Part shown: in pieces, positions 2,551 through 55,700 of the stretch
Position numbering within the stretch: position 1 is the first letter of the stretch
Layout: the number at the start of each line of letters is the position of its first letter
Position numbers and translations under genes: made by a program
Source: Eledone cirrhosa
Taxonomy: Eukaryota
DNA: 64,000 bases
Reading direction: 5' to 3'
Assembly (NCBI GenBank): GCA_964016885.1
Contig: OZ024745.1
Location: 112,964,001 to 113,028,000 of the forward strand
Notes under the pieces: model-generated
Database searches by the model: none
Seen by the model: the letters and a program-made list of their open reading frames with translations, nothing else
Told to the model about the DNA's origin: nothing

Positions 2551-4199
2551 TCCTTCTTTTCCCTTTTACTGTGAGTAGTAAACCCTTACATGGTTCGTGA
2601 CACCATGTTTGTGACAGCTACTTCCAAAATGCTGCAGATGCGATTCGGTCGGGGATGTCCTTGAGATTCTAATGTGTTTGGATCATGAGTTCTATATCTA
2701 TCCTCGATCAGTTCACCTAACACAATCCGTGGATCTTCAGCATGGTTGAGACAGAGGCTACTAGTTACCAGAAGTTTATTTCTGACAGTACATCCATCAG
2801 CCTCACTTTCGCCACTCTTTGCTCCAGGTTCAAGGGAATTAGTACAAACTCCTCACTCTTAACTGGGTCAGTGGAATGGTACTTTGCCTTATCTTTCGGG
2901 AGGAACCTTATGTCTACCTGGACCTGCGCCAGCCAGTGCAACAACTTTTTGCACCTATTTATCTGTACAGTACCGTACATGTCTCTGTATTTACATTGTT
3001 TCTTTTAATAATTTTCTCTATATTTCTATTTTACTTTCATGAACCAAGTGAAAGCAGTTAAATCACATAAAAAAAATGGAAAACAATTCTGTAGATTCTT
3101 ACAAAAGCATAAATTGTATAGATGAAACACATTTATATTAAAAGAAGAATATTTCTTGAGACTCCCTCTCTTTTCATCTGGTGCGAACACATTTAACCAA
3201 GAATGCTAAACAAAACTCGATACGAAATTGTACAGAATTATAACCAATTCCCACAAGCATATTTATATTCTGCAGATGACAGACAGTTAGAAACCATACA
3301 ATGCATAATTTCACAAGAGAAATTGTTATGGAATTTGGTTTATAGAAATACAACCTTGAAGAGCAAAAAAATAATAACGTATTAGATAAATAATCAGAGA
3401 CAAGAAAATTGAATTAAACACAGACTTACAAACAACTGGAAGGTACATTATAGACATCTTAGCTTAATATATAAAATAGAGCTAGACTCCTAAACTAAGG
3501 TATAATCTAGGTGCCCCAATTGTTTCTACTTTTGGCGCAAAGCCAAAAATTACCCAGTGTATTACTGGTACTTTATTTTATCGAGCCAATAATAATATTC
3601 ATATTTTTCTCTTATTTTGCTAAATTAATAAGCAAGCAAGACAGAAAAACACGACGAAAAAGGAATCTAGAACATACCTCACAAAAACCAAGAGAAAAAT
3701 ATTATACTTATTTCAAACACAGGGACTAAGGGGCGTTCTGCAACTAGAAAATTATAATGAAGTATCTACTCAAGGGTTGTAAAGGTATCTCATAACGGTA
3801 TTAGAAAACTAATATAAATAGCGACAAAATACGAACAAAATAAAACAGCGCCCTGTATCCCAGGAGACCAAGAAACACAACACAGGCCGAAACAACAGAG
3901 GGGTGAAGAGAAAGGGAAAATAACAAAATTGTTAAAATAATGAAATCTGAGCTGAAATTGAAACTATACACGTGATTGCTAAAACACGAAAGATCCATAC
4001 GGAGCCAGTATCTGAAGTGTATAAACAAAAAACCCGTAAAGATGAAAGGAAAAGCTAACCTCAGCAGGATTTGAACTCAAGACGTAAAGAATCGTAACTA
4101 TACAAGAAATTCAATTCTAATTTTCTGTAGAAACAATATTAACGTATGCTAGGATGGCCGACTTGATATGTTATATTTATAATTAACAAACTAACCTGC

Positions 4200-8922: not shown

Positions 8923-9459
<537 letters not shown>

Positions 9460-9547
9460 GTATTTGAGCTCAGATGAAAATTCTCTGTTCTTCTTCGAGC
9501 TCATATTATTATTACTGTGAACTGCGGAATACTTTAATTCCGATCTT

Positions 9548-9633
<86 letters not shown>

Positions 9634-9702
9634 CACATATATATATATACATATACATATATATATATATACATATACACATATATATATATATATATAT
9701 AC

Positions 9703-9852
<150 letters not shown>

Positions 9853-10100
9853 ATATATATATATATACATATATGGATATATATATATACATATATGTAT
9901 TAGTTATACTATTTATGGTTATGTAAATACAAAACCTTAAGCAGTTGTAAGTATTTTACACACACCCTAAATAGTGGTAGGCAGTATTGTATTACTACCT
10001 TATTACAAGTAAGTTAAGTAGCTCAATGTAAAAACATCAGATGATTTACAGAGCAGTTATATGAAATATAAGAATCAAAGAACTGTTCAAAACATTATTG

Positions 10101-10147
10101 TGCTTACAGCTGTTTCCTCCAAACCGAGGTTTGGATTCTTCGGAGCA
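10101..10147 (-). ncRNA. Minimal type I hammerhead ribozyme motif in 3' pLTR (core variant CCGAAGA)
   Basis: TGCT-CCGAAGA-A-TCCAAAC(CTCG)GTTTGGA-G-GAAA-CAGCTG-TA-AGCA; palindromic stem III ACAGCTGT; GUA triplet. Confidence 0.75.
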
Positions 10148-11590
10148 ATTTATTAATGCATGGACAGTTATATGACCTCCTTTTCAGTCGAGAGATATAC
10201 CAATACATATTCAAACATTGATACATATTCAAACATTGTGGGTCAACATTCATTACAGAATTTAGAGTGGCAGTACACACTTCGAGATTACATTTATATT
10301 AATAGGTACAATAAAAAATAAAAAATATAGGTTAAAATACAACATGAAGATAAGCGGTTATATAGTGCAAATGTTATATGTGTGGCACGCATGTGCGTCT
10401 TGTTTATATAGTGTGGTAGAGAGATATGTGTGGTAGAGGCACTTAGGTAGGTAAATAAGAGTGTTAGGTTGGTAGATCTGGAGGCAAATTCTTTATATGA
10501 TTGATATAGTCTGTGTGTGGAGAAATATTATAAGCATTAAAGATAGTGCAAGCATTAAAAGTGTTATAAGTAATGGAGATGCACAGCGCAGGGATGACAA
10601 GTATTTCATGTACTTCGGCATTTTCATGGTCAGGGAGTGTATTTTTCGATTATATGCCCTTCACATAATCCACGACAATCCAGTTAGAGATCGTAGTCTG
10701 GTGTTCTTTAGTTCGATACAGGAGGTTGTTACGTTTCTAGAAACGCCATTGAATACCGCCCGGAAGTGTGTGTGTGGCTAAGGGGAGTTAATGCATGCGG
10801 GGAGGTAACTCTGGGGTTTCTATATCTAGCCATTAAAATGTGTCCCAATATAGACCCTAAATTCCATGGTGATGCGCATCTTCCAAGAGAGATTTTTAAA
10901 GCATAAAGTGTATTAACTATAGAGTAGTTTAATTAAGTTATGCTGAAGGTGATCATATTATTATGGTGGATTAACCCATCTTAAGGTGCCACAAATGGAT
11001 ATTATAGATGATGAGCGAGGATTCTAAATTAATGATCTCTGTGGTTGTAGTCTGCTCATATGACCAGGCGCGGTGATTGCAGGCTTGCTTCAGGACCCAA
11101 TGATCTCTGGTAAGATCTGGGTCATTGCTTGCTACATTTGATGTCGAAAGATAATTATCCCCAGGCCGGCCAAAGGTCAATCCGCAGTCCTCGCGACCCC
11201 TCTCTGACCGTCAGATCATCCATATACGTACAACCCGCACGGCAGTTGGAATGCATTCACTCACTGCGCTCAGCAGTCCGGTCCTACTGGTCAACAGCGC
11301 TACTCGATTAAATCATTTTACATCCGTCTAAGGAAGGTGTTTCCTCTGCACCACACTATCCAACCGATCAATTCATGCTCAAAATACCCTTAGAGCGGTG
11401 TAGTGCCGTTCAAGTGGGTGGATGTTGTCACACCTGCCGTAGAGGTGTAAATGGGTATTCTCCCTGCGAAGGGTTCCAGAGGGATGTCATTGTTTGTGTT
11501 ATAATGGATCAGTTAGTGTTGGGTATGTAGTATAAGGTGTGTCTCTGGTGTTTGATGCTAGATGTGGTGTTAGGTTCCAGTCCGACATTG

Positions 11591-14050
11591 CTATATATCG
11601 GGCTTAAAGTTTTGGAAGGAATGTCTGAGGCGGTGCTGGCAAGTTGCAAACACCTCAGATTTTTTGTTAAGTAGGTTACGGTTGGAGAAGATAATATTGT
11701 GTGTCTCTAGTATACAGAGGTTACAGAATTTATTAGGTGGTTTGTACGAGGTCGCGCTTCCTATCACTTCCCATTTGAGTGTGTATGGTTTATTTTTAGA
11801 TTTTAGATAGTGTATGTAGCTAGAAAGTGAGGTGGAGTTGGCTAGGCTGTGCTTTTTGAACGAGTGGATGTGCGAATTATATCTGATTTTGAAGCAGTTA
11901 GAAGTGGAGCCTACATAGGTTTCTGAAGAGTTATTAGTCGTGACGGTGCATGAGTATATGACATCCTTGGTTAGGCATTTTTTATCTAAAGGGCAGGTTC
12001 TATTAGCTCTACAGTTACAATTATCCTGTGCGTTAGTCCGCTGGTTATAATGCAATGCGGAAGTCTGTGTGGTAGATATAGGATTTTGGGTGTTCGGGTT
12101 GACAACCCTGGTGTTATTACTTATACTAGTGTTATTTCTATTGTTACTGCCGTTGCTATGGTTGCTTGCTACAGTGGTATTTAGAGGGTTTGCATCCCGT
12201 TGTGATTTTGTTTGTTGGAAGTAAGAACTAATTTTACTATTATTGCTGCTAGCTATGTGGTATGCTAAGTTAGGCGTCGTAGAGTATGAGATTTTAATGG
12301 TGTTTTTGTTTAAGAGGTTGTGGTACTTGTGTCCTAGAGGGAAGTTTTTATCTAGTAGTGAGAAGAAAGCCCTAGGTATGTTGGTGGAGACATTTAGGTT
12401 GAAAGGAGGGTTGAAAAATGTATTATTTCTTCTTCTATTTTTGCTTTTAGTGTTTGGTGTGTTGCTTCCTCCTAAGGCCCCACAGTAGTTTCCATGGTAA
12501 TGGTTACTTCCGGTGGCACCCTCCGCTTTGGTGTACTTGTGGTTGCTATTCCTATTATTAGATTTCCTCATGGACATGTTGTGCGAGATGATGTTGTAGC
12601 TATGTGTTTTCTTAGGTAGGAACTCAATTTCTATATTATGGCCGGAGCTAGCTAATGCTTGATTGTAATATTGTGAGTTTTTGCTAAATATGTTTGCGTC
12701 ATAGGACAGACTAGATATTCTATTGGACACCCCCTTAGAGATAGAGTTTAATATTGATCTAGGGTGATTAGACTTGGTATCTACGTAAATAAGTTTCTCA
12801 TTAGGCTTGTGGAAAGGTGTATATATTTTTGAGTCTAGGTATAGTGTGGCGTCTAGGAAGTTAACATTTTTAGTGTTTTTGTCCATGGTGATACTAAGGT
12901 TAAAGTTTTTGAATGTCTTATGCAGTTGTTTTATAGTTCTTTCTATATTAAATTTTTTATATTCTATAAGTAGAAGTGCATCATCGCGGTACAAACCACC
13001 GTTGAGGTAAGGGAGGTCCTTATGGATTTCGTTGAGGAGGTATAGGCCGACCAAATCTGTGACCTGCGCCGAGTCACTAGATCCCATGGTTATGTCGAAG
13101 TTGTTGTGCGTATCCTTGCGTGTCCATAGTTGGTCCTCAAAGGTGATTATGGTTTTACGGACCGCAAGGATGACATCAACCTGGGCTCTAGTCAGGTTGC
13201 TATTGGTCATGGCCATGATAAGTGCCTTATTTAATAGGATAGGGGAAATAGAGGTGTAGTACGAATTGATATCAAATTGAATAAATTTTTTGTTCTTATT
13301 ATTCTTGATATCCTTGAACCATTCAATTACTTCACCCGTATTTCCCCATTGTTTAAGGTGTATCTTGTGTTTAATTTGTGGGATGATTTTATCCAAAATC
13401 TTTTTGCCGATAATACCAATGTCGGACTTGGAAGGGCAGATAAGTCTTATCGTGGGGTTGCTGATGAAGTTCTCCTTATGGTCCTTCAGAGAGAATCTAG
13501 GGGGGTTCGGAGTGAAAGGTTGTGTATGCCTCTGTAGTCCTAGTTTAGACACTATATTATAGCCCTCTACATTAATATCTTCTAAGTTTTTCAAGGTGGT
13601 TTTTTTGTAGCTTTTATGTAGTTCATTATATATAAACTTTCTATAAGTATTATAATCTAGGCTGTATATGTTATTAGTTTTATCTGCGTGTACAATAATT
13701 TTATTACTAGTTTTGAATCCATTAATAGAAGTGTTAAGTTTGTTTAAGAAGGTGTTGCTTTTAATATGGTGCTTATTGTATTTAATGTTCTTAACTAGTT
13801 TAACTAGGTCATTTTCAAAGGAGTTAAGTAGAGTGTTATGAGGGGGGCTTTTAAAGGTTTTAAAGCCGAAGGAGTCAAAATTGTTAGTATTATTCAAGTT
13901 GTTAGATTTGTTTCTATCATAATGGAATGTCCTCCATCTCACTCTATTGATAAATGAATTTACACTGTTGATCAGCAATTTCTCATATGTATTCCTGGAT
14001 GGTATTGGTATGTTCTTGGTTGACATGGGGAGTTGGTCTTTGATTAGCAT
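11591..14050 (-). CDS. Penelope-like (Naiad-type) reverse transcriptase + C-terminal GIY-YIG endonuclease, 819 aa, intact
   Basis: N-terminal STKNIPIPS; RT motifs QFDINSYYTSI, FDITMGSSDSAQVTDLVGLY, GLYRDDAL; CNCR-x4-CPL-x3-CL knuckle; VIY...YVGST..FKIRY..H GIY-YIG; C-terminal CNLC..E...C.H. Confidence 0.95.
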   Translation of the reverse strand: MLIKDQLPMSTKNIPIPSRNTYEKLLINSVNSFINRVRWRTFHYDRNKSNNLNNTNNFDSFGFKTFKSPPHNTLLNSFENDLVKLVKNIKYNKHHIKSNTFLNKLNTSINGFKTSNKIIVHADKTNNIYSLDYNTYRKFIYNELHKSYKKTTLKNLEDINVEGYNIVSKLGLQRHTQPFTPNPPRFSLKDHKENFISNPTIRLICPSKSDIGIIGKKILDKIIPQIKHKIHLKQWGNTGEVIEWFKDIKNNKNKKFIQFDINSYYTSISPILLNKALIMAMTNSNLTRAQVDVILAVRKTIITFEDQLWTRKDTHNNFDITMGSSDSAQVTDLVGLYLLNEIHKDLPYLNGGLYRDDALLLIEYKKFNIERTIKQLHKTFKNFNLSITMDKNTKNVNFLDATLYLDSKIYTPFHKPNEKLIYVDTKSNHPRSILNSISKGVSNRISSLSYDANIFSKNSQYYNQALASSGHNIEIEFLPKKTHSYNIISHNMSMRKSNNRNSNHKYTKAEGATGSNHYHGNYCGALGGSNTPNTKSKNRRRNNTFFNPPFNLNVSTNIPRAFFSLLDKNFPLGHKYHNLLNKNTIKISYSTTPNLAYHIASSNNSKISSYFQQTKSQRDANPLNTTVASNHSNGSNNRNNTSISNNTRVVNPNTQNPISTTQTSALHYNQRTNAQDNCNCRANRTCPLDKKCLTKDVIYSCTVTTNNSSETYVGSTSNCFKIRYNSHIHSFKKHSLANSTSLSSYIHYLKSKNKPYTLKWEVIGSATSYKPPNKFCNLCILETHNIIFSNRNLLNKKSEVFATCQHRLRHSFQNFKPDI

Positions 14051-14299
14051 ATTGGCAATATTATATGTCAGCTCAACGATATGGAGCAGTTAATAGTATT
14101 AGTTATACTATTTATGGTTATGTAAATACAAAACCTTAAGCAGTTGTAAGTATTTTACACACACCCTAAATAGTGGTAGGCAGTATTGTATTACTACCTT
14201 ATTACCAGTAAGTTAAGTAGCTCAATGTAAAAACAACAGATGATTTACAGAGCAGTTATATGAAATATAAGAATCAAAGAACTGTTCAAAACATTATTG

Positions 14300-14346
14300 T
14301 GCTTACAGCTGTTTCCTCCAAACCGAGGTTTGGATTCTTCGGAGCA
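14300..14346 (-). ncRNA. Minimal hammerhead motif in 5' pLTR
   Basis: Identical to 10101-10147. Confidence 0.75.
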
Positions 14347-14421
14347 ATTTATTAATGCATGGACAGGATAATTTATTAATGCATTGACAGGATAATTTAT
14401 TAATGCATGGACAGGATAATT
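14346..14421. repeat. 3 x 24-bp chimeric junction repeat (AATTTATTAATGCATGGACAGGAT)
   Basis: Units at 14346, 14370, 14394; joins pLTR sequence to inverted ORF sequence. Confidence 0.92.
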
Positions 14422-14849
14422 GTAACTGTAGAGCTAATAGAACCTGCCCTTTAGATAAAAAATGCCTAACCAAGGATGTCATATACTCATGCACCGTCAC
14501 GACTAATAACTCTTCAGAAACCTATGTAGGCTCCACTTCTAACTGCTTCAAAATCAGATATAATTCGCACATCCACTCGTTCAAAAAGCACAGCCTAGCC
14601 AACTCCACCTCACTTTCTAGCTACATACACTATCTAAAATCTAAAAATAAACCATACACACTCAAATGGGAAGTGATAGGAAGCGCGACCTCGTACAAAC
14701 CACCTAATAAATTCTGTAACCTCTGTATACTAGAGACACACAATATTATCTTCTCCAACCGTAACCTACTTAACAAAAAATCTGAGGTGTTTGCAACTTG
14801 CCAGCACCGCCTCAGACATTCCTTCCAAGACTTTAAGCCCAATATATAG
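14411..14849 (+). pseudogene. Inverted duplicate of the GIY-YIG domain of the Naiad ORF (5'-truncated)
   Basis: Protein identical to the C-terminus of the 819-aa ORF except FQDFKPNI vs FQNFKPDI. Confidence 0.92.
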
Positions 14850-16293
14850 CAATGTCGGACTGGAACCTAACACCACATCTAGCATCAAACACCAGAGACA
14901 CACCTTATACTACATACCCAACACTAACTGATCCATTATAACACAAACAATGACATCCCTCTGGAACCCTTCGCAGGGAGAATACCCATTTACACCTCTA
15001 CGGCAGGTGTGACAACATCCACCCACTTGAACGGCACTACACCGCTCTAAGGGTATTTTGAGCATGAATTGATCGGTTGGATAGTGTGGTGCAGAGGAAA
15101 CACCTTCCTTAGACGGATGTAAAATGATTTAATCGAGTAGCGCTGTTGACCAGTAGGACCGGACTGCTGAGCGCAGTGAGTGAATGCATTCCAACTGCCG
15201 TGCGGGTTGTACGTATATGGATGATCTGACGGTCAGAGAGGGGTCGCGAGGACTGCGGATTGACCTTTGGCCGGCCTGGGGATAATTATCTTTCGACATC
15301 AAATGTAGCAAGCAATGACCCAGATCTTACCAGAGATCATTGGGTCCTGAAGCAAGCCTGCAATCACCGCGCCTGGTCATATGAGCAGACTACAACCACA
15401 GAGATCATTAATTTAGAATCCTCGCTCATCATCTATAATATCCATTTGTGGCACCTTAAGATGGGTTAATCCACCATAATAATATGATCACCTTCAGCAT
15501 AACTTAATTAAACTACTCTATAGTTAATACACTTTATGCTTTAAAAATCTCTCTTGGAAGATGCGCATCACCATGGAATTTAGGGTCTATATTGGGACAC
15601 ATTTTAATGGCTAGATATAGAAACCCCAGAGTTACCTCCCCGCATGCATTAACTCCCCTTAGCCACACACACACTTCCGGGCGGTATTCAATGGCGTTTC
15701 TAGAAACGTAACAACCTCCTGTATCGAACTAAAGAACACCAGACTACGATCTCTAACTGGATTGTCGTGGATTATGTGAAGGGCATATAATCGAAAAATA
15801 CACTCCCCTGACCATGAAAATGCCGAAGTACATGAAATACTTGTCATCCCTGCGCTGTGCATCTCCATTACTTATAACACTTTTAATGCTTGCACTATCT
15901 TTAATGCTTATAATATTTCTCCACACACAGACTATATCAATCATATAAAGAATTTGCCTCCAGATCTACCAACCTAACACTCTTATTTACCTACCTAAGT
16001 GCCTCTACCACACATATCTCTCTGCCACACTATATAAACAAGACGCACATGCGTGCCACACATATAACATTTGCACTATATAACCGCTTATCTTCATGTT
16101 GTATTTTAACCTATATTTTTTATTTTTGATTGTACCTATTAATATAAATGTAATCTCGAAGTGTGTACTGCCACTCTAAATTCTGTAATGAATGTTGACC
16201 CACAATGTTTGAATATGTATCAATGTTTGAATATGTATTGGTATGTCTCTCGACTGAAAAGGAGGTCATATAACTGTCCATGCATTAATAAAT

Positions 16294-16340
16294 TGCTCCG
16301 AAGAATCCAAACCTCGGTTTGGAGGAAACAGCTGTAAGCA
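16294..16340 (+). ncRNA. Minimal hammerhead motif in inverted copy
   Basis: Reverse complement of 10101-10147. Confidence 0.75.
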
Positions 16341-16400
16341 CAATAATGTTTTGAACAGTTCTTTGATTCTTATATTTCATACATATATGTATATATATAC

Positions 16401-16470
<70 letters not shown>

Positions 16471-16986
16471 GTATGTATATATATAAATTTACAAAAACAT
16501 TCTATATAATGACTTTTCATGCATTCACTGTTAAACAATTACATAGAAATTCTATTTCATTATTTACATGCCACAAACTTACCTCAATGCCAACTCATTG
16601 AAGTTAACGTAATCTGATCCCGTTTTACTTTCTTCTGTTTTAATTCCCATTGCTTCTTCGTCTTTCTCGTTTGTACAATTTGCAAAGATTTAATCATTTA
16701 TCGATTTTTCTTGTAACCACTCCATCTGATTGTCATTCATTTCTTCAATTTATTTTTTCCACTAGCAATAGCCAACAATGTTTCTCTGAGAATCATTATA
16801 AAGCTAGACGCATCACGGTACTCAACATATCAAATTCCAACTCAGAAATACATATAACGCCATTATTTGCTACTGAATGTTTTTTGAACGTCGACTTGAA
16901 TATTTCTTTCTTTCCTTCTTTCTTTCTTTTTTCTTTCGTTCTTTCTTTCTTTCCTCCCTGTCTTCACTTTATCTTTCTATTTCAAA

Positions 16987-17294
<308 letters not shown>

Positions 17295-17297
<3 letters not shown>

Positions 17298-17891
17298 ACC
17301 CCAGCACATAAATATAGTAACATTTTAAATAGAAATACCATTAAAATTTCTTACTCTACGACTCCTAACCTTGCACATAACATCACAGCTTCAAATTTAG
17401 CTAAACTACCTAGCCGTAGGAACACGTGCAACCCGGTAGCTAGTACTAACTGTAATTGTAGGAATCGGGTTGACTGCCCCCTATCCGGGAAATGCCTCTC
17501 TAGTAACATTGTCTACAAATGTAAGGTTGAAACACCCACGTCCCGTAGGGCCTACATAGGGTTAACCGCCAATAGATTCAAGCAGCGTCTTTACATGCAT
17601 ACCCATTCTTTTCTTAACCCTTTAAGAAGGAATATGATGTCACTTTCAGCTTATATCTGGCGTCTAAAAGACAACCACACCCAATATAAGTTACACTGGG
17701 AGATCCTAGCTAGGGCTAGATCGTATAACGGAAATAAGAGACCATGTGACCTCTGCGCCGCTGAGGCCCTGGAAATACTCTACGCCACAGACCACATCTT
17801 AAACAAAAAATCTGAAGCAATTTCGGCTTGTAAACATAAATTGCGCAAAACTTTCCTGTATTACAACCCCACATTATACCCTAACGGATAG
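17295..17891 (+). pseudogene. 5'-truncated second Naiad-type PLE (thumb end + Zn knuckle + GIY-YIG), open frame
   Basis: Frame open upstream of the listed ORF: [26 protein letters not shown]...NCNCRNRVDCPLSGKCLSSNIVYKC...AYIGLTANRFKQR...CDLCAAE...ACKHK. Confidence 0.9.
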
Positions 17892-30564: not shown

Positions 30565-33500
30565 GCTTTCTTTATTAACCACAAGGGTTTACATAAAGTA
30601 GATATTAAGCACAGTACAGGACAATACAGGACGGCACAAATGGGCATTTCTGCGTGTAAAAAACAAAAGCAGAGGATGTAAGAAACAAAAAAAATAACAA
30701 TGAAAAATTCCTCAATAGGGGGGAGACTTCCGAGGGACATTCGTGGAGAAAGCCCATTAAAAAGCCACAGTGACCCTGACCACCAAGGCAAGTGCCCTCT
30801 CCCAGTTTTCCACCTTCAATTTACCAGCACATACTCAGAGCCATTCACTCGGGCCATTCTTGCTTCTCTCACCCATCTTTCAACAAAATGCTGGGAAGAG
30901 AGCACTTCCCTCTCTACCCTGATTTTCCTTTTCAAATGAAATTTGAAAAACTTAATCAGGGCATCACCGAAGAGGTAAGTGTTCGTCTTCAACCTTTCAA
31001 ACGCGTCCACCATACTATCTCTTTCGCCATGGCCACCAGACAGATAAAAACTGCCTGCCCTTCCCGGCTAAAGGAAGAGGGTGGGGCAATCCTCACGATG
31101 GACTCAGCTGATAGCCGGATTCGTCCTACACACGACAGCAGGTATTCGACATAAACCCACAAGTCATCAATGCTCGGACACTGGACGAGTGCGTGCAGGA
31201 CGGTTTCGTCGCTCTTCGCACATCTCGGACATGCCCGGCTGACGGCACCTCCATGCCTGTAGAGTTTATCCCGAACTGGCAAAGCTCCTCGGTAGCACTG
31301 CCAGGCCAGGGATTTCTGGAAGTTGTCCAGAGGCCCCGGCCCGAAAGTTCTCCCGAAGAGATTGGTTAGTTGATGTTCGTCGACGCCCAGAGTTTTCCCA
31401 AGTACGTCGTCACTCTTCCCCTCCACTAATCCTCTATAGAACGCCAAGGTGGAGTTTCCACCGATCGCATTTCCCGACTGGTCTAGGGCTGTGAGCGCTT
31501 GAAGACATTCCAGTCTCCAAGCGCTCCCTGTCGGTCTTCGCTTGACCCAGGACTGCAGCTCCGTCAAGGAAACGAGCTGGGGAAACACGCGTCTAGCAAA
31601 TGGCGATCATACCTGATCACTGTCTAGGAAGAGGTGGAGATGTCGTAGCCTGAGCGCATGTCTGCGCATCATGAGCCACGGCATGCCCAGCCCTCCACGT
31701 AGCGGGTGTTGACAGCAGATGGACCGTCTGACAATCGGAGCGCGTCCCTTCCACAAAAAACGAAAGAGCAAACGCTCCAGCGCAGTCAGGCGAGGCTTAG
31801 GACAAGGCACGACGGTCAGGCGGTACTAGATGACGGACGCGATGTACGTATTCGCCACCTCCGCTCGACCTTTCAGAGATAGCTTCCTCTCTGCCCATTT
31901 CTGGGCGAGAGAAGCCAACCTGCTCGTCATCTCGTCCCAGGTTTTGTCCGTCTGGAGGTCCGGACGGAACCAGAACCCCTAGCAATTTAACCGGTCTGTC
32001 CGTCCAGCGCCCGACCTCGCTGTTGGACGGCATGGACCTGCCTCTCCAGGTGCTGAGCTGCAGGCTTTTGCTGGTTGATCATTGCTCTTGTCACCGCCTC
32101 GTATTCTCTTAGTGTAGTGCCGATCGTCTCGATGTGTTTGGCGTTCGACACCAATACGGTGACATCGTCCGCATATGCTGACACGGATCTTCCGCATCCC
32201 TGTTCGTGCGGGACCCCCTCAACGTCTCCAGTTTGTGTAGCAATGGCTCGAGAGTCAATACGTACAACAGGGATGAGAGGAGACATCCTTGGCGGACCGA
32301 GCGCATGATGTTGAACGGTTCCGAAACTGACCGTTCACTCAAACCACAGAGCAGGTGTCGCTGTGCATGGCAGCGATCCAGCTTCTGAAAACGGGCCCAA
32401 AGCCAGCCGCCCTCAGGACTGCCGCCAGATAACGATGGTCGACCCTATCGAAAGCTTTCGACTCATCTAAGTTGATGAAGGACCCACCCATGCCAGATTC
32501 CCTAGCTACCCTCTCCACGATGTATCGCATGAGGGAGAGGTTGTCGTGGATGGATCCGGATGGAATGGCGCATGTCTGCGCCTCTCCTACCAGACCACCA
32601 ACGACAAGCGCCAACCTCTTTGCTAGCACCTTGGCCAAAATCTAGAACTCAGTGTTTAGCAGAGTTATGGGCCTGAAATTATCTATGTTATCCCCCTGTT
32701 CGGATCCTTTATCAGCAGCGGCACCGCCCCTCGGCTCACAGAGCTGGGAATTCTCCCGTTCTGTTGCCAGTTGCAGAAGACATCCGCCAAGATGTCTCCG
32801 AACAAGCCTGGTATGTGTACGTAAAGTTCGTAGGGCAGACCATCCAAACCAGGCGACTTACTCCTTGTGCAGCTAGTCATTGCCTCCCGTACTTCAGCGG
32901 CTGTTATCGGCTTTTCGCAACACTCCGCCTCAGTGGCCGAGAGCCGTGGCAGTCCGTCGAGGTAGGCACTAAAGTCCATCCCGTGATCCGGCCTGCCTCT
33001 TCCACCGAACAGCTGAGCGAAGTGTCGCTGAAAAGCTTCACACATTTTCCCGGGATCGCATAGCATGCGCCCGTCGTGGTCCACCAAAGACCGGGTCGTG
33101 GCTTTGTTACTACGACGCGCCTCTGTCACTCGGGCCCATTGAATGGCTTTCGTCCCCGCGTGTCTGAGAGCAAGCACCCTAGCTCTGACAACGCAGCCTT
33201 CGTGCTTTGCATTGAAGAATTGGTCGAGGGTTAATTTCGCCGCAAGTACGTCGGTCGCGATGCCTTTACTAAGCGGCTCGACTAATTTGCTAACTAGTTC
33301 TCCCTCTTCTCTATTTTTCTCTATTGCTAACGCCTTACTAAACCTAATGGACTCTATCCTAATCGCTCTTTTCAGAGCAAACCGCCATTTGTTGTTGACG
33401 ATGGCCCCCGCCAACGCCCGCTTAACTAGTTCGCTAATCCGGTCTCTGTAATCCTTGCGCGCTGTTAACGACGCGTTTAGCTTCCAGTAGCCGAGTCCCT

Positions 33501-34780
33501 GTCTATGAAGCCTATCTAAGTCAACCTCACAGATCACGAATGCGTGGTCCGTGTAGTCGACTATTTTGAATTGTGGACAGCCTATGCTAGACCTATCTAT
33601 TTCCCTACAAAATACCCTATCTAGATATGATCTGGATGACCCGATGCGGTTTGTCCATGTCCACATTGGCACATTCGGGAAATCCAGACGGTACCTGTCA
33701 GACAGTTGAAACCGTTTGAGCAGGTTTGCGAGTCTTTTACACCCTCCTCCCCTATCCGCTAATCCCACACAGTCCCAGCGTGCATCTAAAATCCCGTTCC
33801 AATCGCCCACTAACACCAAAGAGCGGGACGTTCCAAGAAAGGTCTCCAGACGCCGGAAGAAATCAGGACGCCCTGCTCTTGTCGGGGCATAGACGGCCAC
33901 TAGCCTGAAAGCTTGCCCGTCTCCGCTGGTCAGGTCCAGCACCACCAACTTACCTTTTGGGTCCAGGAAGATGGCCCGTATGGCGAGATCCAAGCCTCTC
34001 CGAAAAAGCACAGAAACTCCTCCCCCCTGATCCTGGATGACTGGGAGATGCGTATACATCGTAGCCACCGAAGATCGGTGCGAAGGCTCGTGCTTCGGAG
34101 ATTCTGGTCTCGCTGATGGCCACCACATCTATGTTTAGTGACCTGAGGTCGTTGAACAGGTGGCCCTGCTTCCGTGACGACCCCAGGTCACGCGGATTTA
34201 AGCTGCTTATTCTGAGTAAAGGAGTGGAAAAAGATGGGAAAGACCACTTACCTCACTTCTTGTTGAGGAAGGATGGTTTTTTTCCGCCCTTCTCACTTCT
34301 TGTGGCCCCCTCCGGAAGGATGTCTTTATATATCCTCCTGGAAAGTGTTTGTCGGAAGTCTTCTATGTCCTTGGGGAATTTTAATTTATTGTCGTGTATG
34401 TTTTCTGTGTAATACGAGTGATTTGTATGTGTGGGGTGGTGTGAATCTTTGTGGTGTTGTATAGTCTTTTTCTGTGATGCTGGTGTTGTGTTGGATGTAG
34501 TGTAATAATTGGTTATTCAAATTTAATGCTGTGTAGTGTGTATCGTTTTGGTTGCTTTGTTTTGTTTGCGTTTATTGTGGGTTTGTTTCTGTTTCGCTTG
34601 TTGGTGATTTTCGTGGTGTTGGTGATGGTGGTGTTGGGGTTAATGATGGTGATGGTGTTGGTGTTTGTGGTGATGGGGCTGGTGATGCTGGTATCTGTGG
34701 TGACATAGCTGTCTTAACTTTGTTGTTAGTTTGTTTGTTTGTTTCGCCCTGCATTTTGTTTTTGAAAGAAGAAACCAAGA
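30565..34780 (-). mobile_element. Near-full-length Tx1-clade LINE (ORF1 tail, frameshifted ORF2 APE-RT-CCHC, 3' UTR, (ATT)n tail)
   Basis: APE (LVLVGDWN, SYLDR, TDH), RT (KSPGLDGLPYE, DESKAFDRVDH, VRQGCLLS, AYADDVT), CPRC..ETVLHALVQC; AATAAA then ATT/AGT repeats. Confidence 0.92.
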
Positions 34781-34789
34781 ACTGTCATA

Positions 34790-35939
34790 CCATTTATAAT
34801 GACACACAATCCATGTCACCAGAATATCTTCAATACTTCCAAAGCAAACCTACCGATCATTGCTCAAAGTAATGAATTAAAAGGTTTAATCACAGACCGA
34901 GCTTTGATTCTTAGTAAAAGACAGCCGAAAAATTTGAAACAATTACTAACAAAGGCAAAGTTTGACCTTTACAACAAAGACCAATCATTCACTGTATCTA
35001 AATGCAATGATAGTCGATGTGGCACATATCAGTTCATACATACTGGTCAACATATGAACACAAAAACTGGACAAATATTCCCAAATGCAAATATGAACTG
35101 CAAAAGCAGAAATCTAATTTACTGCATTAAATGCCCGAATTGTGAATAACTATATGTCGGTCAAACTGGAAATGCATTATCGGAACGTGCACGGGTGCAC
35201 CGACAGCAAATCAGAGACTCAAATGTCCGTCAGATACCCCTGAGTAACCATCTAGCAACATGTGGTCAGAAAATATTTACAATATTTCCATTCTACAAAC
35301 TACACAGCTCAAGTGAAATCAAGAGAAAAATTAAAGAAAAGAATTTTATTGATAAATTCAAACCCAAGCTAAACGAACAATAATAATGCTCAGGGGTATT
35401 ACTTCTACTATGACTACGCCTACGACCATGTCGACTACCACCACTAACAACAACAACAACAATAATAATAATAATAAAAGTGATGTTGATGGTGATGATT
35501 ACTGAAGATTTTTTTATAAAAACCCTAGAAAACGCTATTTTTAGCATTTCTAAAAATAGAAAAACAATTGATGCTTTGGATAGGGTCAAATAGAAGTCGT
35601 TTGACATACTCAACCAGCCGTGACGCCTAAACCAATCAGCTTTAGTAATCTAGTGAAACCACACACCGATTGGTTGAAATGCAATTTGCAAAACTTAGCA
35701 TTCTGTAGTCCCTTTTTAATGTATATAAGGCACAGATTTTAGCCATCTCATTACAGTTGAAAATTGCAAACTTGACTGTCACCACTGAATATGAACCTGA
35801 AGATTGCGAAAGCATGAAAGTACTTGTTCAATTAACACTTACCATTTAATATTCTACCATAATATTTCATTATAATATCATTATAATTTTAAAGGATTGT
35901 AAATAAAACGAGTAAACCAGACAAAGTTGGAATTCCTTA
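34790..35939 (+). mobile_element. 5'-truncated Neptune-type PLE: GIY-YIG with in-frame stop, 3' UTR and pLTR
   Basis: KRQPKNLKQLL..KCNDSRCGT..NCKSRNLIYCIKCPNCE*LYVGQTG..ERARVHRQQI..E..FI..FKPKLN; ends at (TA)n. Confidence 0.88.
35792..35830 (+). ncRNA. Minimal hammerhead motif (Neptune-type pLTR)
   Basis: TGAAC-CTGAAGA-T-TGC(GAAA)GCA-T-GAAA-GTAC-TT-GTTCA; palindromic AAGTACTT. Confidence 0.75.
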
Positions 35940-41335: not shown

Positions 41336-41900
41336 AATATAGAAAAAATATTTTTGTTCAATCTTTAGTACCCCCCCCCCCCCTCCAAAAAAAACCCCTT
41401 TAATCAATACTAAAACATATGAAAATGTTTGCGATTCTGTAATTATCATCGTGGAAAATGTACTTGAAGAAACTGCAATTAAAATCCAATATCCAAAGAA
41501 GCGTAAGCAAAACAGTCATTAATTTTGACGGCAAGGGTACATTACTGATAGTAATGCTATCCCTTTCAGAAGCACAAGCTATCGATTGAATTGATCGATA
41601 AGATCCAAGACCTTATTCCGAGTGTAGTGGAACTCGTCAAATCGGAACAAGGAAACAATATTTCCATTGGTTTTCCCACTGCTGATACTATCTACCGGTC
41701 TATGTTTTTTATTTTGAGAATATCATTTTCCCAGTATAGAGGTCAGATTAAGCAAAATCTGTCTTGGTTGTATTGTGGTATAAAAGTTGAAGTCTCTTTG
41801 CTTTTTTCTATACATGCAACAAATTATCATTTCCTCCCCCATCTGGCATCTATTTCAACTAACTACCGCCTTTAAAGTGTTTGCCTTTATGGCCTAAAAC

Positions 41901-41987
<87 letters not shown>

Positions 41988-43250
41988 ATTCATACACTGC
42001 CCGGGCGTCACTGACCTGTGGGGCTATGTAGAACGACTATTGTCGCGGGTGGGACCAATCCGGTTGACCACCGAGTCCATTGTCATGATCAAACCGCCAC
42101 CCTCCTTCAAAAACGAAGGAGAGGCGGTTTTCCTTTGTGTGATAGCTATGGCGAAAGAGGTTGTATGGTGGACAAGGTTGAAAGGGCTGAGGTCAGACAC
42201 CTTTCTCTCCGGCCAACAACTGATTCTTTTTTTCAAATACCACTTTGGAAGAAGAATCAGGATGGAGAGAGAGGTGCTGTACCCCAGCAAGTTTTATGAA
42301 AGGTGGGTGAAAGTGGCGAGAATGGCCCGAGTGAATGGGCCTTCTCTCTATATCAGCCTGTAGGTTGAGGAAAAGGAGGAGGAGAGGAAAGGAGTACAAG
42401 CTCTTCGTACTCCTGGAGATGAGGGTTGCACATTTTTTTTCGGGGGTATGTGTTACCCATATAAACTGTCTCCCTCTATTGGGGAAAATCGACTAACTTT
42501 TTAAATTCCATTTGTGATAACATTTTACACGTTTTTATTGTATGTAAACTTCCCCCTTTGTATTTGTCCCCTTCTTTTGTGCCCCTGTGGCTAATAAAGA
42601 AATATATCTATCTATCTATCTATCATTCATACACTGCCCGGGCGTCACTGACCTGTGGGGCTATGTAGAACGACTATTGTCGCGGGTGGGACCAATCCGA
42701 TTGACCACCGAGTCCATTGTCATGATCAAACCGCCACCCTCCTTCAAAAACGAAGAAGAGGCGGTTTTCCTTTGTGTGATAGCTATGGCGAAAGAGGTTC
42801 TATGGTGGACAAGGTTGAAAGGGCTGAGGTCAGACACCTTTCTCTCCGGCCAACAACTGATTCTTTTTTTCAAATACCACTTTGGAAGAAGAATCAGGAC
42901 GGAGAGAGAGGTGCTGTACCCCAGCAAGTTTTATGAAAGGTGGGTGAAAGTGGCGAGAATGGCCCGAGTGAATGGGCTTTCTCTCTATATCAGCCTGTAG
43001 GTTGAGGAAAAGGAGGAGGAGAGGAAAGGAGTACAAACTCTTCGTACTCCTGGAGATGAGGGTTTCACATTTTTCGGGGGTATGTGTTACCCATATGAAC
43101 TGTCTCCCCCTATTGGGGAAAATCGACTAATTTTTTAAATTGCATTTGTGATAACATTTTACACGTTTTTATTGTATGTAAACTTCCCCCTTTGTATTTG
43201 TCCCCTTCTTTTGTGCCCCTGTGGCTAATAAAGAAATATATCTATCTATA
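41988..43250 (+). mobile_element. Two tandem 5'-truncated Tx1 LINE 3' ends (637-bp period) in (TATC)n
   Basis: FIHCPGVTDLWGYVE..MAKEVVWWTRLKG..ERWVKVARMARVNG homologous to 30816-31200; both start CATTCATACACTGC and end AATAAAGAAATA(TATC)n. Confidence 0.92.
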
Positions 43251-54680: not shown

Positions 54681-54857
54681 CCTTTGGGAGCCCCTACATG
54701 GACACACTAGAAGAGGAAGACCAAGGTTAACATATGTTGATGCCCTAAGGACAGACACTGGTCTATTGGAGGCGCAGGACATGGCAGCGATAATGAGGGA
54801 CAGAGACCGCTGGAGAGAACTCGTCCATGGATCTCGGGAATTTTACCCGCCTTAGAG
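54681..54857 (+). mobile_element. 5'-truncated RTE-X-like LINE end with 11-bp TSD
   Basis: LWEPLHGHTRRGRPRLTYVDALRTDTGL..MRDRDRWRELV; TSD ATATATCATAT at 54670-54680 and 54858-54868. Confidence 0.85.
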
Positions 54858-54911
54858 ATATATCATATTTATACACACATTGAGGCAGTCTCGGTTACCC
54901 ATTCTATATGT

Positions 54912-55700
54912 ATGCAGTCGGCATGCTATAGCCAGGACGACGATTTCGAAACCCATTCCTTTCGCATGGCTTCCTGCTTCATCCAGCGTGGATATCCTCC
55001 CACCTTGATCCAAGCTGCTCTCACCCGCGCCCGTGAAACAGATAGCACCACAGCCCTCTCACCTCACCCCCACCCTCCAAACACCCGTGTTCCTTTCCTT
55101 CTCACCTACCACCCCATCACCATACCACTCCGGCGACATATCCTCCGTTCCTTCCGTATCCTCTCTTCTGACCCCGTCACTTCTCGCTTTTTTCCAAACC
55201 CACCCATTACTGCTTTTAAGCGCGCCCGAAACCTCCGCGACCTCCTGGTTCGCAGTTCTTTTTCGTCCTCTCCCACGACTCCACTCGGCTCTCATCCTTG
55301 TTCCCGTTCCCGCTGCAACACTTGTCCCTTTATTTCCACCTTCACCACACTTACAGGCCCTGACGGGTCTTTCTGTATCCGCCATTCCTTCACCTGCACA
55401 TCCACCCACGTTGTCTATGCCCTCCAGTGTTCCCTTTGCGGGTCTTTATATATCGGACAAACGGGACGCCGTACGGCGGACCGTTTTGCCGAACATTTGA
55501 GGGACATACGACTCGGTTTGGATACCCCTGTCGCCCGTCATTTCTGTTCTCCTGGTCATTTTTCCCTACATGTTTCAGTCCTGGATGTCCCTTTACATCA
55601 TGGATCACAGGTCTCGCGCACCAGGACTGAACAAAGTCTGATTCACCGTCTTGGGTTCTATTCCTCTCTTGGACTCAACTCACCTCTCCAATTTCTCTAA
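54912..55700 (+). pseudogene. 5'-truncated Neptune-type PLE ORF (thumb, CxxxxCxxC linker, GIY-YIG), frame open
   Basis: RGYP..VPFLLTYHP..AFKRARNLRDLLV..CSRSRCNTC..FTCTSTHVVYALQCSLCGSLYIGQTGR..RFAEH..PVARHF..E..LI..GLN; 3' UTR runs to ~56336, ending at (CA)n. Confidence 0.9.

Follow-up and report, generated by a model that had tools for sequence, protein, structure and literature searches.

A private three-copy chimeric repeat at the inversion junction of a Penelope-like element in Eledone cirrhosa, a probable scar of iterative microhomology-primed joining of two cDNAs

The window, a stretch of 64,000 nucleotides from the 3.0-Gb genome of Eledone cirrhosa (contig OZ024745.1, 112,964,001 to 113,028,000), carries a Penelope-like element (PLE) inserted into a (TA)n microsatellite (Table 1). 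From left to right, the insertion consists of (TA)n, a 4.2-kb minus-strand unit, a 274-nt pLTR, a short tandem repeat, an inverted 5'-truncated arm, and (TA)n again; e-numbers denote positions along the PLE unit, counted from 14092. The inverted arm stops at the 'short' terminus, which precedes the 'long' terminus of the main unit by 165 nt. The 832-aa frame contains the motifs RWR (residue 51), DKT (136), YRDD, CNCRANRTC (691, the CxCx5C linker), YVGST, CNLC (789) and CQH (817). By these motifs, a single ORF would combine a reverse transcriptase (RT) with a C-terminal GIY-YIG endonuclease (EN), the organisation expected of an EN+ PLE, and the pLTR, the inverted truncated copy and the one-sided tail typical of EN+ PLEs are all present. 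The frame had no Pfam match at the cutoff, the RT and EN being assigned by motif. The RWK-type motif, DKT, the CxCx5C linker, and CxxC and CxH around E/N, together with the (TA)n target, suggest a Hydra-like Penelope. Across the family, (TA)5 or more was found within 30 nt of 83% of 119 short ends and 91% of 102 long ends. The conserved, predicted hammerhead-like motif lies directly 3' of the repeat unit in the RNA and reads CCGAAGA where the canonical core reads CUGANGA; its commonest form accounted for 171 of the 183 matches among the eight forms listed, and Rfam returned no hammerhead match for it and nothing else useful.

Table 1. Coordinates of the PLE insertion and of the repeat at its inversion junction.
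Feature	Position	Strand	Basis
(TA)n target microsatellite, left flank	9550..9892	.	TRF 9550-9900, sequence
PLE main unit, 4.2 kb; 3' end is the 'long' terminus (e4200), abutting (TA)n	9893..14092	-	arm alignment, end classes
Left portion of the repeat unit: its homologue within the 3' pLTR copy	10147..10167	+	21-nt exact match
Open frame of 832 aa (first Met: residue 14); RT and C-terminal GIY-YIG-like EN	11591..14089	-	ORF, motifs
Right portion of the repeat unit: its homologue within the main ORF	12019..12029	-	arm alignment
5' pLTR, which partially repeats the 3' end in tandem	14093..14366	-	98.9% to 9893-10167
Predicted hammerhead-like motif (CCGAAGA core, stem, GAAAC)	14312..14342, also 10113-10143	-	pattern scan
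Repeat unit 1: the original end of the left arm followed by GAT of the right arm	14346..14369	+	sequence, TRF
Repeat unit 2, a re-copy carrying G>T at 14385	14370..14393	+	unit comparison
Repeat unit 3 and closing AATT (14418-14421), continuing into the right arm	14394..14421	+	sequence, arm alignment
Inverted 5'-truncated arm, e2064-e4035 ('short' terminus)	14411..16381	+	99.7% to 12029-10060
(TA)n target microsatellite, right flank	16379..16485	.	TRF

The tandem repeat at 14346-14421 has a period of 24 and 3.2 copies (TRF). Its first 21 nt (14346-14366) match 10147-10167 exactly and over precisely that length, and from 14411 onward it follows the reverse complement of the sequence that runs down from 12029, with an exact match over 418 nt and 99.7% identity over 1971 nt. 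The two templates have ACAG (14363-14366) in common, and AATT forms both the start of the left piece and the end of the right piece of the 24-nt unit. TRF and the arm alignments thus bear out the initial annotation in describing a chimeric 24-bp unit, repeated three times at the inversion junction, whose templates share ACAG and AATT. The sources that it had given, 10147-10167 and 12029-12019, match in sequence, but they are homologues, in the main copy, of the direct donors, which are the junction's own arm ends (the pLTR copy 14093-14366 and the right arm from 14411). Likewise, the repeat is real, but its units are not all identical, a point that the initial annotation had left unmentioned: the middle one carries a G>T change that units 1 and 3 lack (G/T/G order). 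Units 1 and 3 largely represent the original arm ends, so that the net insert amounts to 48 nt (14367-14414), and deletion of these 48 nt restores an exact join of the left and right arms over the ACAG microhomology. The 24-nt unit is 71% AT, against 62% for the element, in a comparison of this single unit.

A chimeric 22-mer from the repeat had three matches genome-wide, all inside the 14346-14421 block, whereas a neighbouring family 24-mer had 1884. The block is therefore not part of the family consensus, the origin that the initial annotation had named as its refutation and that is ruled out by the confinement of all three matches to the block itself. The left breakpoint (e3926) does not lie in a hotspot, with 7 breakpoints in e3920-3939 against 3-11 in the adjacent 20-nt bins.

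To place this junction within its family, a non-random sample of 127 unique head-to-head junctions was drawn from 248 partly overlapping loci. Wherever both outer ends could be resolved as long (e4200) or short (e4035), one of each was paired (78 of 78 loci); another 8 junctions had a different end type, and 41 were cut off by the stretch fetched. At 61 of the 64 loci with enough overlap the two arms resembled one another more than they did the median other copy; at 46 of 64 they were at least as close to each other as to the nearest copy (pooled divergence 0.33% vs 1.88%), a similarity to which gene conversion between inverted arms may contribute. The window arms differ at 5 of 1953 sites, against 1.2% to the nearest other copy, and have seven rare alleles in common. 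The long/short pairing and the mutual closeness of the arms fit an origin as two target-primed cDNAs from one source; for a lizard PLE, the RT has been shown to start at two sites and to extend both strands (PMC11167929). Palindromic joints, with both breakpoints within 10 nt, were found at 14 of the 127 junctions (shuffle mean 1.6, maximum 9), including L034, L069, L078, L083, L114, L130, L173, L186, L207 and L208, and a fold-back or a shared RNA (5') end explains this minority of the family joints. A pure fold-back origin of the window junction was ruled out, as its breakpoints, e3926 and e2064, are 1.9 kb apart.

As a separate observation, about 13 of the 40 apparently single-armed copies listed carry a 6-16-nt stub of a partner arm at the 5' joint (L011, L019, L103, L108, L154, L158, L193, L218, L222, L223, L230, L232 and L235), indicating that double priming is more general than BLAST reveals.

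Tabulation of other inverted copies, which the initial annotation had proposed as a check, revealed related scars. Manual reading identified re-copied segments at 21 of the 127 junctions, where 0.25 would be expected from the four private tandem duplications of at least 6 nt found away from junctions in 243,168 arm bases; this excess of about 80-fold is approximate, since events near junctions were found by eye and parser and distant ones by aligner. The scar count left out indels shared by the family (the 18-bp tandem near e3850-3890, a 22-nt insert at e3411 and a 9-nt one at e3526) and deletions near joints (L067, L084, L186, L224), and one homopolymer and two 5-nt duplications were removed from the background count. 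The other 106 junctions were simple; 7 of these 106 carry a short, ambiguous insert of at most 7 nt (e.g. L077, L116, L221), also left out of the scar count, and 56 of the 99 simple joints without an insert had at least 2 nt of microhomology, against 18% in random joins.

Nine of the 21 scars (L009, L015, L024, L045, L079, L139, L200, L214, L234) retain template from beyond the final joint. As a single join removes such template, these cannot derive from slippage of a finished join, and such scars form during joining. In four others (L085, L091, L117, L140), which are nearly perfect tandems, the microhomology used for the jump is found solely in untrimmed template. Formation before ligation accordingly holds for 9-13 of the 21 family scars, and the remaining eight, including that of the window, fit either timing and are formally compatible with slippage after joining, so that the window scar is not diagnostic by itself. 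Units mixing both arms occur in the window, at L009, probably at L015 and L079, and also at L232, which lies outside the 127, and three in-register copies were found in the window alone among the 127 junctions. Two or more re-copied pieces are present at about 5 of the 21 scarred joints. Across the 21 scars, about 3-4 mismatches were counted in some 400 re-copied bases, where arm-arm divergence would lead one to expect about 1.3; this hint of error-prone synthesis is suggestive but not significant. In two scars (L234:2376-2454 and L139:1572-1609), the inserts were copied from 170-700 nt away, beyond the usual range of templated insertions.

A second kind of re-copying is found where cDNA synthesis begins. 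At the short terminus e4035 (equivalent to 16381 in the window), the first 7-9 nt of the cDNA may be reiterated 1-4 extra times. Genome-wide, one or more extra copies are present in 396 matches, of which about 13 are internal; plain matches number 835 at (TA)-flanked termini and 1253 at internal sites. This gives a rate of up to 31% of termini against 1.0% for the same motif internally; the 31% is an upper bound, because other flanks were left out of the terminus count. Among the sampled loci, it was present at 21 of 110 termini, a sample biased against reiteration, and at 2 of the 37 sites lying internally; as many as four extra copies were seen (e.g. L041, L054, L081, L116). The long end is seldom reiterated: one form had 11 matches in the genome, and the sampled loci showed 2 cases among 102 such ends. 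The reiterated word is flanked by ATAT on both sides, and such an ATAT-bounded word resembles the alignment region of a telomerase template. The reiteration would be best read as a telomerase-like realignment of the RT at initiation, which makes a capacity of the RT for realignment plausible without proving that the RT made the junction scar.

Taken together with the junction enrichment and the single-source arms, the anatomy of the block leads us to consider the triple repeat, with a confidence slightly better than even, as a templated-insertion scar from integration, in which cDNA ends paired once at ACAG and twice at AATT, most likely during polymerase-theta-type end joining. The element would cut the (TA)n tract, and both DNA ends would prime cDNA on a single source RNA, one start lying at its 3' end and the other 165 nt inside. 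ACAG at 14363-14366, where the 5' pLTR ends, would be the left breakpoint and the first cDNA's 3' end, and the inverted arm would represent the second. The two cDNA 3' ends would meet head to head and pair over ACAG, whereupon extension would add GATAATT to the top strand and, to the bottom strand, a complement of the 17 nt on the left, producing the chimeric 24-mer on one strand. The AT-rich duplex could then melt and re-pair at AATT, so that the top strand would re-copy the 24-mer with one error, the G>T change; after a second slip the 24-mer would be copied again, and synthesis would continue through to ligation.

Since the chimeric 24-mer is contiguous after one ACAG pairing, three units require one switch and two AATT realignments rather than five switches. 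Neither the chimerism nor the presence of two microhomologies is extra evidence, given that any joint-spanning tandem duplication is chimeric and that a second 4-nt repeat, of period 8-40, is available at 56% of random joins, so that AATT as a second microhomology adds nothing. The G/T/G order fits re-copying of one template with one error, whereas slippage of two units needs a later mutation; the chance of a later mutation somewhere in the 72 nt is about 9%, as estimated from arm divergence.

The initial annotation had proposed microhomology-guided jumps between two nascent cDNAs. The joining-time scar that this implies is most likely, given the 21 scars against 0.25 expected and the single-source arms, but repeated alternation of templates does not follow: the three alternations that had been claimed cannot be read from the sequence, as one ACAG switch with two AATT realignments yields the same product. 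A literal version, in which five successive switches each return to the original left or right template, finds a precedent in the family, where left-right-left-right alternation out of register occurs clearly in L009 and probably in L015 and L079. Nevertheless, the switches in the window all reuse the same two registers, as re-copying of one chimeric template predicts, more events are invoked for an identical sequence, and the second microhomology is expected by chance (0.56), which makes this version improbable. We regard replication slippage after insertion as only marginally less improbable. A simple ACAG join would have left AATT twice, 24 nt apart, and the later addition of one or both units from this starting point would formally suffice for the window sequence; moreover, a two-unit array is a substrate for expansion, and one family arm (L071) does have an extra copy of the family 18-bp tandem. 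Against this, 21 scars are seen near joints where slippage predicts 0.25, and still 8 if the slippage-compatible cases alone are counted; the insertion is young; and the 18-bp tandem gained a copy once in about 140 arms, whereas about 5 of the 21 scars have at least two re-copied pieces, which disfavours later slippage as the source of the third unit. An assembly or sequencing artefact is very improbable. Among 13 listed runs, the 8 that were examined gave no read or contig over the core of the block (14376-14409; 14369-14381) and no joint across it. These runs appear to come from other samples and so are no evidence either way: several of the window's private alleles are missing from them, their contigs drop rare variants, and three are reduced-representation. 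In addition, the inner unit differs from its neighbours, and twenty other joints display related but varied scars.

With regard to the enzyme, polymerase theta is the modest favourite, and the element's own RT is a weaker, though serious, candidate. The RT would jump from the RNA to the partner cDNA at the end of synthesis and then realign in a telomerase-like manner. This would agree with start reiteration at up to 31% of termini against 1.0% internally, with the 2x chimeric unit at L232, which contains the start stub, and with the jumps of hundreds of bases in L234 and L139, which exceed the reach of about 50 bp reported for Pol-theta templates. Furthermore, a purified PLE protein is described as cleaving and extending both strands from two start sites, and as a predicted dimer (PMC11167929). 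On the other hand, the first switch requires a DNA template, namely the partner cDNA, most scars share with Pol-theta insertions a short length, a local source and, it seems, a richness in AT, and primer slippage on the RNA suffices for the start reiteration, which could itself be made by the host. Slippage has been proposed for the tails of LINEs (UnaL2, PMC3747384), and host repair is reported to join truncated R2 cDNA ends (PMC13486585, which also cites McIntyre 2025 Science and Levin 2025 Genetics for host repair of retrotransposon 5' junctions). It is thus a tentative possibility, clearly second to Pol-theta-type joining, that the PLE RT, the sister of telomerase, realigns in vivo, re-copying its start and, by the same activity, knitting cDNA ends into chimeric repeats. 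If true, repeat-addition processivity would be shared across the PLE-TERT lineage, and the family would hold hundreds of dated genomic records of it.

The features of the window scar can be compared with those of known systems. Pol-theta insertions are reported (PMC7165422, PMC4032859, PMC2895639) to measure 3-30 bp, to be templated within about 30-50 bp, to form direct repeats by intermolecular synthesis, and to be AT-rich and iterative. By analogy, the scar resembles them in size, locality and position, direct-repeat form and probable iteration, and may do so in AT content. Pol-theta TINS are recognised by an insert of at least 5 bp identical to the flank within about 50 bp, and the 48-nt insert consists of two junction-spanning 24-mers; they also use microhomology at the first and later alignments, here ACAG and AATT, of which AATT alone is not above chance (0.56). 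TINS also feature joins at short microhomologies and inserts copied from the flanks with pieces from both sides, as in the window scar, and iterative priming, extension and dissociation at AT-rich tracts, as the window scar would on the favoured reading. In contrast, what is joined here is a pair of retrotransposon cDNAs, not resected chromosome ends; the copies number three and are in register; and a few family scars jump much farther.

EN+ PLE insertions, as presented in the available parts of PMC8557442, PMC3846280 and PMC11167929, likewise have a partial tandem and an inverted arm in head-to-head orientation, a one-sided tail, microhomology joints and two RT start sites. Their tails measure 30-40 nt, against 165 nt here, and their joints are palindromic or at microhomologies, re-copied inserts and reiterated starts not being described in those parts. 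Both starts of the present element abut (TA) matching the RNA, whereas the lizard element is reported to start without homology in vitro. The Hydra clade (PMC8557442) has in common with it the C-terminal EN, RW[K/R], DKT, CxCx5C, CxxC, CxH and the (TA)n target, a likeness in motifs and target; the unit is 4.2 kb here, while the clade is generally below 3 kb, and the hammerhead core is CCGAAGA here. In L1 twin priming (bioRxiv 10.1101/2024.12.14.628481), two target ends are described as priming one RNA, which results in an inversion with a microhomology join, and slippage at LINE 3' tails (UnaL2, PMC3747384) is described as leaving short repeats at the priming end. Unlike in these systems, the second start is fixed here and the overlap between the arms usually runs to hundreds or thousands of bases; unlike in LINE slippage, the word that is reiterated does not itself form a repeat in the RNA.

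In the literature searched, which took in few subscription papers, no report of re-copied PLE junctions or reiterated PLE starts was found; the supplements of PMC8557442 and PMC11167929 (Hydra alignments, insertion ends) may bear on both. Alone, the window repeat is an ordinary repair scar, a known signature in a setting for which this search returned no description. How PLEs complete their insertion is stated as an open question in PMC8557442 and PMC11167929. An answer open to testing comes from the family census: cDNAs primed at the target would arise in pairs from one source, one start always being long and the other short, and would be sealed by an error-prone microhomology joining of the cDNAs in which aborted rounds are frequent. 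The candidates that the census brings forward for this step are host repair (Pol theta) and realignment by the RT. The triple repeat is the most conspicuous example of its class, and its significance lies mainly in the family census and the reiterated start.

The window contains several further repeats and element fragments. Directly to the left of the target microsatellite lies an imperfect palindrome (9040-9463, 87%) with a 76-bp tandem pair (9210-9363). To the right of the insertion, a fragment of a second, related PLE family occupies 16987-17891 (+), with a CxCx5C and GIY-YIG-like frame at 17232-17891 preceded by an inverted repeat around a (TA)n tract (16987-17244). Two more GIY-YIG-like open frames, at 54741-55700 (+) and 34766-35149 (+), would by motif belong to other PLE types. 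LINE-like endonuclease/RT fragments are located at 30989-34128 (-) and 41863-43000 (+), the latter including two near-identical neighbouring frames (41863-42363 and 42548-43000). Finally, the 81-nt core of a dispersed SINE-like repeat (family D18) is present in ten copies, at 4197, 4382, 4524, 21106, 23103, 46461, 47988, 50088, 57410 and 61308.
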